A stretch of 12,371 bases of DNA, taken from the NCBI RefSeq assembly GCF_006345805.1, contig NW_021826557.1, positions 1-12,371 of the forward strand, written 5' to 3'. The position numbers and the translations under genes are program-made. This stretch comes from Octopus sinensis (taxonomy: Eukaryota). The notes beneath the pieces were generated by a model, which was not told where the DNA came from, did not search any database, and saw only the letters and a list, made by a program, of their open reading frames with translations. This document shows positions 3,382 to 12,371 of the stretch, in pieces (the stretch's first letter is position 1; every line of letters begins with the position of its first letter).

Positions 3382-3760
3382 CTATAACAAATAACCTTCT
3401 TAATAAATTACTGCTATAATGTTTTAGAGTGTACTTCTTTTTCGTATATGTGAACTACTGACGATATATATATGTAATATATACATGATTCAGGTAAATA
3501 AGGCACTTAAATGGTAAAGCGCCGGTTGAGCCAGAATTAAAATGCATATACAGCAATAATAGCCGAATAGCAATATTGGTACAGATGTACTGACAGAAAG
3601 ATATTTAGGTTATGTATACAATTAATTGAAGCCAACTAAATATATCATCAGTCCTTGGGCTAATTCAGAAACGCACATTATATTAAATATACGGAACACG
3701 CGAGGAGCAGGCTCCGAGAGAGGTGAATCATAAATAAATAACAAACGATGGAGAGGTGTC

Positions 3761-3847
3761 AATTCATTACAGCTGTTTCCAACGAAGTTTTTAATTGATT
3801 AATCAATACTTTTATCATTATAAAATCCCATTTTCTTCAGATGAATT
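3761..3847 (-). ncRNA. Type I hammerhead ribozyme motif (intact core, long stem II region)
   Basis: The minus strand reads aattcat-CTGAAGA-[54 nt]-GAAAC-AGCT-GTA-atgaatt. Stem I is 7 bp, the stem III loop is palindromic and the triplet is GUA. Confidence 0.7.
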
Positions 3848-3978
3848 CAAGAATTATACAATTAAGATCATTTAAAAACCTTTTAAATCCTCAGCATCTA
3901 CATATTTAGTGAATCCATTATCGTCGTGAAATCACTAAATATGCACATGCCGGAGATTTAAAATTTAAAATTCGTCTT

Positions 3979-4068
3979 TTCATCTGAAGAAAACGGTCGG
4001 TTATTTTAAATAATGATATAATGTACTCATTAATCAATTAAAAACTTCATTGGAACAGCTGTAATGAA
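3979..4068 (+). ncRNA. Type I hammerhead ribozyme motif (one A lost from GAAA)
   Basis: ttcat-CTGAAGA(3984-3990)-[62 nt]-GAAC-AGCT-GTA-atgaa. This is the mirror copy of 3761-3847. Confidence 0.6.
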
Positions 4069-4227
4069 TTGGCACCTATCCATCATTTGTTATATATATA
4101 TATAATGTTAAGTATAATTTAAAATGTATGGGCTATTTATGAAGTGTTCATAGAGAGCCAATGCGAAAAAATACAGAGTATATATATGTGTATATATACA
4201 GAGTATATATATGTGTGTATATACCAT

Positions 4228-4360
4228 ATCACCTGAAGAAATGAAAGGATGAATGAAGACCCTCATGATGGCTATAGATATTACGGATTGAACTGTAATC
4301 ATACCAGGAATAAGAACTAAGGTGGTAAGAAACGTGATGTGTGGAAACGCGCGTAGCGAT
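4228..4360 (+). ncRNA. Type I hammerhead-like motif with very long stem II region
   Basis: atcac-CTGAAGA(4233-4239)-[104 nt]-GAAAC-GCGC-GTA(4344-4355)-gcgat. Stem I pairs at 4 of 5 positions. Confidence 0.55.
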
Positions 4361-4650
4361 GCATTAGAATATTTATAAATTCTATCTATGGATTATTATC
4401 GTTATTACTATATTTGTCCTACGTAATATCGGCACAGCTCGGTAGAACCCCATAAATTTGCTGTTACAAGTTGGTATCGTTAGGCAGGAGCCGGCATAAT
4501 AAAATAGGAGCTTTTATATGGATATTCAAAAACGTTTCCCGTAAACTAACTTAGAGGATATATATATATAGTTTAATGTTTAAAATACCATAATAAAAAA
4601 ACTTGAAAACCAGACCATGTTTAAACTTTATTCAACTGATATATATACAT

Positions 4651-5124
4651 ATATATAAACATATGCATATATACATACATATATGTACATACCTACATCT
4701 ATATGTATATATACATGCATATATGGGTACAGGACATAAAAAAACGTAAGGACTATGAGAAACGAAAACATGGAAACAAACTTTTTTTCAAACAACGAAA
4801 GAACAGAGTACAAGATATACAACACAAGGAATATTCCTCTTCTTTAGTTGTCCCTGTTTCGTCTACTCCGCGTACCTTCGCAACGCAGTGTAGACGAATC
4901 AGGGAGAACTGAAGAAGGGGAATATTCCTTGTGTTGTATGTCTTGTACTCTGTTTTTCCGTTGTTTGAAAAAAAGATCGTTTCCATGTTTTTGTTTTTAT
5001 GTTTTTGTTTCTCATTGTGTTCAGCGTTTTATTTTTGGTGTCCTGTACCCATATATGAATGTATATATACATATAGATGTAGGTATGCACATATATGTGT
5101 GTATACATGCATATGTTTATATAT
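4651..5124. repeat. ~474-bp fold-back palindrome between TA-rich flanks (probably PLE-terminus derived)
   Basis: 4651-4873 is the imperfect reverse complement of 4883-5124, with a ~9-nt loop. The mirrored ORF translations (4628..4825- vs 4931..5143+; 4753..4986- vs 4848..5312+) confirm the symmetry. The PLE origin is inference. Confidence 0.9.
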
Positions 5125-5440: not shown

Positions 5441-5859
5441 GTATGTTTCGCTGAAATGAATGAGATAGATAATAATATACTTAGGATTATGTTGTAGCAT
5501 TATTTTGGAGTATTATAGATGTATCTAAGTATATAAATGTGATCGCAGAGATAATAGTATTTCGGATGCCAGAGAATAGTGACGTCGAAAACACCTTGGT
5601 ATTAATTTAACAAGAGTTGCGTGATTTAGGTGAGCAGGTGTGGCTCTAAAGAAACAGGCATCAATGGTCACTGAGAAGCTAAAGAGTACCAAAGAAGTAA
5701 AGGAAGAACTTTCATATTTTCTGGTGGTTTTCATTGCATTTTAGACATTGGAAGTAAAGGCTAGGTTGGCAGTTGATAGAAAATTCCTTTTAAAGAAACT
5801 AGGACACAGTATACGTATGCTTTCGTAGATTAAGACCACTCTTCAGAGGATGATATATT

Positions 5860-6376
5860 TATTTCTTTATTGCCCACAAGTGGTTAAACCCACTGCACAA
5901 CTGGTACTTATTTTATCGACCCCGAAAGGATGAAAGGTAAAGTCGACCTCGGCGAAATTGAACTCAGAACGTAACAATAGACGAAATACCTATTTCTTTA
6001 CTGCCCACAAGGGGCTACACAATGAGGGGACAAACAAGGACAGACAAACGGATTAAGTCGATTATATCGACCCCAGTGCGCAACTGGTATTTATTTAATC
6101 GACTCCGAAAGGATGAAAAGCAATGTCGACCTCGGCGGAATTTGAACTCAGAACGTAATGGCAGACGAAATACCTATTTCTATTTCTTTACTACCCACAA
6201 AGGGCTAAACACAGAGAGGACAAACAAGGGCAGACAAACGGATTAAGTCGATTACATCGACCCCAGTGCGTAACTGGTACTTAATTTATCGACCCTAAAA
6301 GGATGAAAGGCAAAGTCGACCTCGGCAGAATTTGAACTCAGACGAAATACGGCTAAGCATTTCAGCCGGCGTGCTA
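5860..6376 (-). mobile_element. Head-to-tail trimer of a tRNA-derived SINE (one partial head, three bodies)
   Basis: Units are 5860-5990 (internally deleted), 5991-6174 and 6175-6376. Each contains atcgaccccgaaaggatgaaaggcaaagtcgacctcggc..ttgaactcaga or a close variant. The central block resembles the Deu/Nin SINE domain. Confidence 0.9.
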
Positions 6377-7103: not shown

Positions 7104-7151
7104 GTCTCCGATGAAGGGATATAATAAATATCCTGGAAACAGCTGTTAGAC
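7104..7151 (+). ncRNA. Minimal PLE-type hammerhead ribozyme relic
   Basis: gtct-CCGATGA(U4 changed to C)-a-GGGATAT aataa ATATCCT-g-GAAAC-AGCT-GTT-agac. Stem I is gtct/agac, stem II is 7 bp and the stem III loop is palindromic. Confidence 0.75.
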
Positions 7152-7153
7152 CT

Positions 7154-7383
7154 ATTTTTTTACTACCCACAAGGGGCTAAACACAGAGGAGGCGAACAAG
7201 GACAGACAAACGGATTAAGTCGGTTACATCGACCCCAGTGCGTAACTGGTACTTAATTTATCGACCCCGAAAGGATGAAAGGCAAAGTCGACCTCGGAGG
7301 ATTTTGAACTTAGAACGTAACGGCAGACGAAATACTGCTAAGCGTTTCGCCCGGTGTGCTAACGTTTCTGCCAGCTCGCCGCC
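7154..7383 (-). mobile_element. Full-length tRNA-derived SINE (family of 5860-6376)
   Basis: The minus strand reads ggcggcgagctggcagaaacgttagcac (A box) ... agttcaaaatcc (B box) ... gtcgactttgcctttcatcctttcggggtcgataaattaagtaccag ... A-rich tail. A probable decayed TSD lies at 7137-7153 and 7384-7398. Confidence 0.9.
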
Positions 7384-10868: not shown

Positions 10869-10956
10869 ATGCAGTACGATCGTTTCAAGCAACTCCATTT
10901 AATCGAACAATGCAATCATTACATTGATTTAAATGCAGAGCAATCCTCAGCAGCAT
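10869..10956 (-). ncRNA. Type I hammerhead ribozyme motif (intact core) in PLE terminal repeat
   Basis: The minus strand reads atgctg-CTGAGGA-[57 nt folding as catttaaatc/gattaaatg and caatgtaa/ttgcattg]-GAAAC-GATC-GTA-ctgcat. Stem I pairs at 5 of 6 positions, or 6 of 6 using the atgcag of the inverted copy at 12314-12319. Confidence 0.75.
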
Positions 10957-10960
10957 AAAG

Positions 10961-12135
10961 ATGTTCTTTCGCCTTAGCGCTCCCTTATTAAATACCAGAA
11001 AATGCCAGTTGATCAATCTCCATAGACACCATCTAAATAGTTTATATTTAAGTATATAATATGTATAAATATTAAACTATTTCTATGTAATTTCTTTTCC
11101 CCCCTCTAATGTGGTAACATGTGGTTTATACTCAAAAGTACTTAAAGAAATTTTATCGTTTTGTTATAAGATTATTCTTAATAATCTTCTTGGTAGCCCT
11201 AAATTTTAACTTTATACAATATAGCTATATTGTTTAAAATGGTTTTAGTAATTACTTTATTTATCCATTTCTTAAAGAGTTCCACTCTCCTGTTCTTAGT
11301 ATTTATATTGGCCTTTATGCAAGTAGCCCTTCTAACATCAATATTCCTTTAGCTAATACCAGGTATTAGTATTTATTGATACATGCTAAATAAGTTAATA
11401 AACATTTTTAGTTTATAATACTTAAATTATTATACATTTTCTATAAATCTTCTCTATTGATGTTAATAAGGTATAAATACATTCTCATGGTTTTAGTGAT
11501 TAAGCTATTTTATTCCTTTCTATGGTGTTTTACCCTACCTGATCATTTCATTCTTTAATATAGCCTTTATAAAATAAATCTAATTTTTGTACTCTTATAA
11601 ATTCATACTTAGTTATATAAAACAATACCGATATCTTCACACCCAACTTAAAATAAACTGCGTAGATTATAATTTAATTAATATATAGTTAAAAGTTTTT
11701 TCGCCTCAGTGCTCCTTTATTAAATTACCAGTAAAATCCAATTGATCAATCTCCATAGATACAATCTAATAAGTTAATATTTAAGCATATAATATGTATA
11801 AATATAAAACTATCTTCTTAATAACCTTCCGAGTAACCCTAAATTTTAACTTTATACAATATGGCAATATTGTTTAAAATATTTAACTATAGAACCCCAT
11901 GATAAAAATTTCCCCTAATGGCTTGCCCCTTTAAATGTCAGCTAACTTCTTGATTTAAGATTTCCTTTACCAAATCTCATTATATTGTTTCAAATTAATC
12001 TTGATAGTTTTCTGACCATACCCACTATGATTTCTGTCGACTCCCCCAGCCCCCTTCCTAACATACATTGTTCCTTGTTTTTTGGCCTTAGATTCTGATA
12101 TACAAAGATTTGATAAAACAAATCTACAAATTAAA
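10961..12135 (-). pseudogene. Heavily decayed PLE reverse transcriptase plus start of GIY-YIG domain
   Basis: Motif remnants on the minus strand, read across frameshifts, occur in the expected order. They are FIKSLY (12117-12100; cf. DIKSLY), NNIMRFG, GQAIRG (cf. GLAMG), KIYRKC (11451-11434; cf. VYRKPT), RRATCI (11333-11316; cf. RAxRIC), LGLPRR (cf. LGYP), MLPH (cf. LPY), GVY (11030-11022) and KEH (10969-10961). No clear YxDD motif remains. Confidence 0.6.
11699..11880. repeat. Diverged direct duplicate of 10967-11240 lacking ~94 nt
   Basis: tttcgcct.ag.gctcc.ttattaaat...ttgatcaatctccataga...aaactat and ccctaaattttaactttatacaatat...tgtttaaaat are both shared. Positions 11081-11174 are absent from this copy. 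Confidence 0.9.
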
Positions 12136-12313
12136 ACTGACCCAAGAAAACAGTGACAAGCTGGGATTTCTAACCAAGTCTTTCTTCCTGATAACTTAGT
12201 AGCTGAAGTGAAGACAGCATGTTCTTTGTCTATCTCCTTACATCCTTGGAGGTTTTAGGTGAAATCATACTAATGTGTCCATCTGCTTTAATTTCATTAA
12301 ACTATATGTCTTT

Positions 12314-12371
12314 ATGCAGCTGGGGATTGCTCTGCATTTAAATCGATGTAATGATTGCATTGTTCATTTAA
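12314..12371 (+). ncRNA. 5' half of the inverted hammerhead copy (truncated by window end)
   Basis: atgcag-CTGGGGA (A6 changed to G)-ttgctctgcatttaaatcgatgtaatgattgcattgttc..., the mirror of 10869-10956. Confidence 0.55.

Follow-up and report, generated by a model that had tools for sequence, protein, structure and literature searches.

Hammerhead motifs in both polarities are a feature of the Avsunviroidae, viroids in which the two polarities are different sequences in one circle. Pairs of minimal hammerheads on opposite strands, 100-700 bp apart, have also been described by Cervera and de la Pena (2014; PMC4209133), and were ascribed there to truncated Penelope-like elements (PLEs). Arkhipova (2013; PMC3846280) and Craig (2021; PMC8557442) describe a 5'-truncated PLE copy with an adjacent inverted copy and a tail at one end; for such junctions, the former prefers self-priming on an antisense template. 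Section 11 of the latter gives the motifs that define the Hydra clade, and its supplement lists Hydra-1_Obim from Octopus bimaculoides with (TA)n targets. For PAc Poseidon of Anolis, Frangieh (2024; PMC11167929) states that both target strands are cut and extended, that two reverse transcriptase (RT) start sites bound the tail, that the hammerhead cut coincided with neither the start nor the end of any read, and that cleavage was dispensable in vitro. Non-LTR retrozymes are said in a preprint (bioRxiv 10.64898/2026.07.22.740005) to need two hammerheads in direct tandem. Finally, a PLE expansion at distance 0.2 in Octopus vulgaris is given in PMC13282606.

Here we analyze a locus in a 12,371-nucleotide stretch of the Octopus sinensis genome (the whole of contig NW_021826557.1, hereafter the window), where a first-pass annotation had reported a rod-like palindrome with a hammerhead on each strand. 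The feature is very probably a junction at which two truncated 3' ends of an old Penelope-like retrotransposon that has Hydra-clade motifs meet head to head; it was likely produced in one insertion event and is predicted to be an inert remnant today. Its inverted-copy, dual-hammerhead anatomy is already published for PLEs; the departures are a long tail, a mismatch in helix II, and a pile-up of copy ends at the predicted ribozyme cut.

Structure of the Insertion

The palindrome at 3738-4093 stands as first annotated in two respects: the arm alignment located one hammerhead motif per strand, and no stop-free frame of at least 80 aa overlaps it. It is imperfect, with 18 substitutions in 150 aligned bases between the arms, plus indels. 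Folding of its minus strand gives -168.9 kcal/mol (z -22, reached by 0 of 100 shuffles), a trivial result because any palindrome gives a strong rod. The palindrome is real, but its annotated extent was too short, since a 251-bp tail on the left arm had been overlooked: the 356 bp are the middle of a 607-bp insertion at 3487-4093, which holds no ORF.

The insertion was delimited by mapping family segments and by the end and length of the tail. The left arm (3738-3923, minus strand; family positions about -182 to 0) is the end of the 3' UTR, a pLTR-like part of the element. It continues past the short 3' end of the family into the tail (3487-3737, minus strand), which only this arm carries, and for which 222 first-look candidates were obtained in the genome and 40 scored. 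The right arm (3904-4093, plus strand; about -198 to 0) stops at the short 3' end. Both sides end in (TA)n, the left target flank being (TA)n-rich (3465-3486) and the right one (TA)n (4094-4105), and the insertion is therefore placed at 3487-4093; no target-site duplication is readable within the (TA)n. At the head-to-head junction (3904-3923) the arms overlap by about 20 bp, and the comparison of centres indicates a sequence unique to this locus. Contigs from two sequencing runs, X2 and X3, span the centre (X2, 3757-4039, no differences; X3, 3817-4039, two differences), although the assembly itself may have been built from X2, and the loss of an A at 4053 recurs as a deletion in an X3 contig; thus neither the centre nor the lost A is an assembly error. 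Run X4, with zero cover at 3864-3917, is uninformative. A contig of X1, whose RNA origin is a guess, matches 4016-4164 and gives no strand, ends, or level.

The divergence of the arms had been put down to age or editing. Age is supported, as the 83 family arms differ from the column majority by a median of 15% (minimum 7.6%), and the expansion in O. vulgaris at distance 0.2 is compatible with it. Editing was rejected as the cause, because A>G accounts for just one of 12 changes in one window arm and three of 14 in the other, which is no excess.

Several other repeats were observed in the window. A larger head-to-head palindrome from another family (4651-5124, -302 kcal/mol) carries the half-core CUGAAGA in each arm with no GAAA after it. 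A like fold-back is present in locus L102, and single arms in L014, L026, L173, and L208; it is likely the same kind of inverted insertion, and could conceivably be the "half core" end of a Naiad element. A third hammerhead-like motif (4232-4362, plus strand; CUGAAGA ... GAAAC-GCGC-GUA) has a palindromic loop III, and its core halves are about 105 nt apart. It may belong to a high-copy family, as contig cover at 4296-4403 is very deep; no match to it was seen among the loci examined. Tandem and dispersed copies, about 190 bp long, of a very common SINE-like repeat, which we take to be octopus-type, lie at 5849-6363 and 7142-7343. Finally, a 63-nt inverted pair (10899-10961 and 12309-12371) extends to the last base of the contig, and an AT-rich stretch contains a 91-nt direct pair (10990-11080 and 11723-11813).

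Hammerhead Motifs

The minus-strand motif (3761-3847) retains the type I core CUGANGA/GAAA/UH with stems I and III: CUGAAGA starts at 3840 (C3) and GAAAC-AGCU-GUA lies at 3779-3768 (G12 at 3779). The intact core, the 7-bp stem I, and the predicted cut at 3768/3767 agree with the first-pass annotation, and stem III is palindromic (AC-AGCU-GU). Absent from that annotation was the helix II of about 55 nt, whose first pair is an A.G mismatch. The plus-strand motif (3978-4070, CUGAAGA at 3984, nominal cut 4063/4064) lacks the same type I core by the loss of one A, which had been noticed and is assigned here to 4053; it is predicted to be inactive. The hammerhead fold of the left motif has -3.3 kcal/mol versus -8.5 for the best fold, about 5 kcal/mol less stable. 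A read-through transcript is predicted to make the antisense half first, which would bury the intact hammerhead; given the weaker fold and this order of transcription, no ribozyme activity is predicted for the locus, which would be an inert remnant today. Neither window motif was detected by the Rfam hammerhead models at E <= 10, the scans giving miRNA-hairpin noise only, and the isolated hammerhead motifs fold no better than shuffles in five of five cases (z -0.54 to 0.47). A strict hammerhead motif occurs 12 times in the genome versus 0 for the reversed control.

Across the family, 81 of 83 arms were aligned, two with large internal deletions being left out. Stems I and III and the long helix II are kept across these 81 arms, and 37 of them have an intact 11-nt core together with H17. 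A paired 10.1-11.1 position is expected of a type I hammerhead, but most arms lack it: the base of helix II is A.G in 35 and A.A in 32 (67 together), and the A-U (five) or G-U (two) pairs belong to a small divergent subfamily. An A-U pair closes the helix in the arms of L267 and L240. The next position, 10.2-11.2, is A-U in 75 of the 81. The loop III pair (A-U 45, G-U 24, G-C 6, unpaired 5) stays self-complementary, as expected for a dimer-type motif. The motif resembles the minimal PLE hammerheads in being type I, with a short palindromic stem III and a larger-than-usual helix II, but differs in the A.G or A.A opening and the length of about 55 nt, whereas G10.1-C11.1 is given as highly conserved in the published description of those ribozymes.

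Helix pairing amounts to 81.4% versus 80.3 +/- 0.3 in shuffled alignments, and two-sided changes number 40 versus 24.6 +/- 3.9 (0 of 500 shuffles), with 28-43 in the slid controls, the copies being related. Since covariation beats the 500 shuffles yet not clearly the slid controls, it is weak support for the helices. Core columns have a uniformity of 0.92 versus 0.89 in other near-invariant columns, with no sign of selection after insertion. By eye, a hammerhead-like motif with a U.U opening of helix II and a palindromic AGUACU stem III was also seen in the 3' UTR of another PLE family (L154-L176).

Parent Element

The sequence upstream of the arm is present in 32 candidates only. The upstream walk crosses about 1.5 kb of AT-rich UTR and then enters the remains of a GIY-YIG endonuclease, which is preceded by CxCx5C and has CxxC and CxH towards its end. 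At L206, L207, L208, and L010 this endonuclease is linked in cis to the hammerhead arm, both being on the same strand. A wider fetch of the last (L266) gives the order inverted tail, RT, linker, endonuclease, and arm, with RT at 5897-5337, endonuclease at 4118-3880, and arm at 2657-2448, all on the minus strand. The RT matches a sister ORF at E 4e-30 and has the YRDD motif, in a coding stretch interrupted by stops and frameshifts. With the arm downstream of RT and GIY-YIG endonuclease at this locus, the PLE origin proposed earlier is borne out.

The CxCx5C linker is present in frames of L204/L182, L207, L245, and L269, and a further Hydra-clade feature is present in L204 (7287-7538), L245, and L271. 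The RWK and DKT motifs of the N-terminal part of the RT were seen in relatives only, and no copy that is linked to the present arm has preserved them; DRT is found in a relative (L279) with 73% DNA identity to L266. Among 58 long homologues of the sister ORF, DK[TS] is present in 57 and RW[KR] in 50. No intact ORF or full-length copy of the present family was found. The tail was never seen upstream of an ORF, and tblastn gave zero matches between it and the N-termini of the 58 homologues. Pfam returned no families for three of four Hydra-type protein queries, and GIY-YIG at E 0.03 for the fourth. The order of RT and endonuclease, the CxCx5C linker, the CxxC and CxH around a conserved E and N, the (TA)n targets, and the 3' hammerhead are as in the Hydra clade. 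In contrast to the elements under 3 kb described for that clade, the present one is old and broken and has a 3' UTR of about 1.5 kb.

Two other upstream sequences were considered. A Neptune-like RT fragment upstream of the arm in L015 was rejected as the parent: the arm is absent from 20 loci around its relatives, so L015 is a chimera. The upstream walk from L135 ended in an inverted piece of another PLE family.

Chimeras between PLE families were observed at several places. At L015 (682-1690) the Neptune-like RT piece is joined to the present arm, inverted 3' pieces of other families lie at 5' junctions in L135 (2180-2535) and L054 (2426-2499), and in L256 (2613-5369) a Neptune-like C-terminus is fused in frame to a Hydra-type RT. 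These cases suggest template switching between families.

The same genome contains a younger sister Hydra-type family (L256-L264) with long open frames and its own long-helix-II hammerhead of like build. Further hammerhead families were noted in L257 (6807 and 7974), L265, and L260, one of them with dual opposite motifs 1.2 kb apart. Young Neptune-like families have intact frames of 776-784 aa (RVT_1, GIY-YIG) and inverted ends (L129, 2534-4861; L131, 2643-4994; L130; L132). The Hydra-type endonuclease gave 11,305 first-look candidates in the genome.

Ends and Junctions of Family Copies

A search of the 2.7-Gb genome with the palindrome gave 952 first-look candidates, 40 of which were scored; such a query ranks palindromes first. 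Two-armed places account for six of the 40 (window included), with palindromes of 356-397 bp on different chromosomes. Most family copies carry a single hammerhead, and in blind samples drawn with short exact patterns, 4 loci out of 29 and 5 out of 28 had hammerheads on both strands.

When positions are counted along the family from window position 3738 as 0 (the family ruler), two 3' ends are seen, at 0 and about +269, some 260 nt apart; blast ends near +290 include flanking TA. The tail between them measures 251-269 bp (269 bp in L006). In most copies examined, both ends reach (TA)n or related microsatellites, an observation made by eye and not set against background. A junction map of 100 unique loci contains 28 head-to-head joins, 25 of which pair one short end with one tail end; the three that break this rule are L050, L069, and L083. 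In L334/L335 a tail is present on both sides. The length of the inverted arm varies continuously, the shortest consisting of some dozens of tail bases and the longest exceeding 600 bp; arm starts lie between about -43 and -391. The subfamily states are mostly the same in both arms of a locus, and the identity of such arms ranks above average.

The centres of the two-hammerhead copies differ in 12 of the 12 examined. As they differ at every locus, the palindrome was remade at each insertion rather than copied as a unit. The recurrence of 360-400-bp palindromes is explained by a cluster of 5' ends at about -180 to -215; in the blind set, 11 of 30 arms begin at about -175 to -215 (P between 1e-4 and 0.014, depending on the assumed range). 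This cluster probably marks where a pLTR-driven transcript begins, and an RT stop is possible. A splice acceptor behind the cluster near -200 was rejected, since the starts lie scattered before and after the candidate AG.

Copies Starting at the Predicted Cut

Some tail-bearing copies begin at or just past the predicted cut. Profile extension over all loci gave 130 anchor hits, 31 of them without family sequence further upstream. Fourteen of these, which did not extend past the anchor, were set aside; they are chiefly weak or foreign hits, but include L086 with its true start at -21. Among the remaining 17 arms, 11 have their start at -30 to -26 and six at -54 to -43, while no start falls at -25 to -23 or at -42 to -31. 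Starts 0-3 nt past the predicted cut thus account for 11 of 17 short arms and 8 of 13 loci, with none in the 12 nt upstream. For the 8 of 13 loci P is 6e-5, and 1e-3 for 6 of 11 without two ambiguous calls (L091, L101); the samples involved no selection on the upstream side of this region, although one of the blind patterns hides starts after -27 and the 5-nt window was chosen after the first cases. Both arms start exactly at -29 in L296 (900-1258), and both at -27/-26 in L317 and in L085. Further arms beginning at the cut or at most 3 nt past it belong to L082, L104, L338, and perhaps, by eye, L344. Other pile-ups of starts are at +9 to +19, about +61, and -180 to -215. In L199 (1373-1604), one arm of a tail-to-tail join ends at the predicted cut (GTA), where a 4-nt microhomology makes the call ambiguous.

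We lean towards reading the pile-up at the cut as a fossil of in-vivo cleavage by the PLE hammerhead, a reading drawn from the genomic copies. A stall of RT in stem I/III of the folded ribozyme, which would also place starts at -29 to -26, is a rather less likely origin. The site coincides with the base of a helix as well as with the cut, there are pile-ups elsewhere, the window was chosen post hoc, and L091 and L101 are ambiguous, all of which a stall could accommodate. However, a stall would be expected near -23, on entry into the helix, where no start was found, and no true start lies within 12 nt upstream of -29. The coincident arms of L296, L317, and L085 and the P value for the 8 of 13 loci, even without the ambiguous two, also speak for cleavage. 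Searches of open-access text listed no report of a truncation pile-up at a PLE hammerhead cut.

Discussion

The flagged palindrome is, with high confidence, an ordinary by-product of PLE insertion. In the proposed mechanism, the endonuclease would nick both strands of a (TA)n target, and the element RNA would be reverse-transcribed from two start sites, each primed by one of the strands. Both cDNAs would run toward the 5' end of the RNA and then be joined 5' to 5'; where both passed the ribozyme, the result is a palindrome with one hammerhead per strand. This scheme follows the one described for PAc Poseidon (PMC11167929) and resembles the twin priming of L1; self-priming on an antisense template, as preferred in PMC3846280, is a possible alternative. 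Arms that abut at about +9 to +15 (L009, L014, L090) are as twin priming predicts, and overlapping arms like those of the window would require either strand displacement or a second RNA template. The 5' end of ribozyme-cleaved RNA would be the likely source of the cluster at -29 to -26. On balance, we give slight preference to a fuller version of this mechanism, in which a non-canonical hammerhead with a 55-nt helix II and a purine-purine opening cut germline transcripts in vivo, after which reverse transcription of the 3' product started at two priming sites some 260 nt apart, each used by one target strand.

Three other origins of the palindrome were weighed. The first-pass annotation had suggested a non-autonomous fold-back derivative of a PLE. 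Such a family, MITE-like or retrozyme-like and mobilised as a palindromic unit, would explain why palindromes of similar size recur on different chromosomes and why 5' ends cluster at -180 to -215. But the ranking was biased by the palindrome query and most copies are one-armed, as the blind samples indicate; all 12 centres differ, the ends are asymmetric with a one-sided tail, the inverted arms grade into shorter and longer ones, and an RT-endonuclease element has the arm as its 3' end. Single arms and one-off centres were the very findings that the annotation itself had named as contrary to its proposal; the recurring sizes are a point in its favour. We therefore regard a self-propagating fold-back family as very improbable, although a small subfamily that copies the palindrome as a unit may exist beside the 40 of 952 candidates scored and the roughly 130 arms in all. 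An origin after insertion, by local inverted duplication or by two independent back-to-back insertions, is hardly more probable. In its favour, the window arms are only 82% alike over a 131-column unit, rank 10-19 of 82 among the copies, and have one non-majority state in common. Against it, a later duplication would have copied older mutations into both arms, and the same short/tail geometry in 25 of 28 joins indicates that the palindrome formed in the insertion reaction. By far the least probable is a viroid-like RNA that carried a hammerhead in each polarity, replicated from RNA to RNA, and was later integrated. It would account for the rod-like fold with one hammerhead per strand, and the annotation had been reminded of it. 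However, the rod is a single sequence present twice, the arm forms the 3' terminus of a protein-coding retroelement with a DNA parent at L266, no tandem or permuted copies were seen, the plus core is broken, and each hammerhead pairs with its antisense copy.

Origin by PLE insertion also fits the comparison with the described systems. The locus shares with endonuclease-positive PLE insertion units the head-to-head order, the short junction overlap, the one-sided tail, and the microsatellite target; it differs in a tail of 251-269 bp versus the 30-40 bp described, and the window insertion contains no ORF. PAc Poseidon likewise has two RT start sites bounding the tail, extension of both strands, and an AT-rich target, but the copies studied here pile up at the cut. 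Non-LTR retrozymes are also non-coding units with a type I hammerhead of PLE origin, whereas here the hammerheads are inverted: the window site has no tandem repeat and its motifs are on opposite strands, so the direct tandem of retrozymes is absent. Unlike in the Avsunviroidae, the two polarities are two copies of one sequence, with an identified DNA parent that has RT and endonuclease.

Hammerheads in both polarities in a rod can thus arise in genomes without viroid-like biology. The rule that inverted joins pair a short end with a tail end offers a genomic test of two-strand priming. If the truncation points mark the cut, in-vivo cleavage would be testable from assemblies alone, and truncation mapping would offer a generally usable way to assay the activity of PLE ribozymes in genomes.
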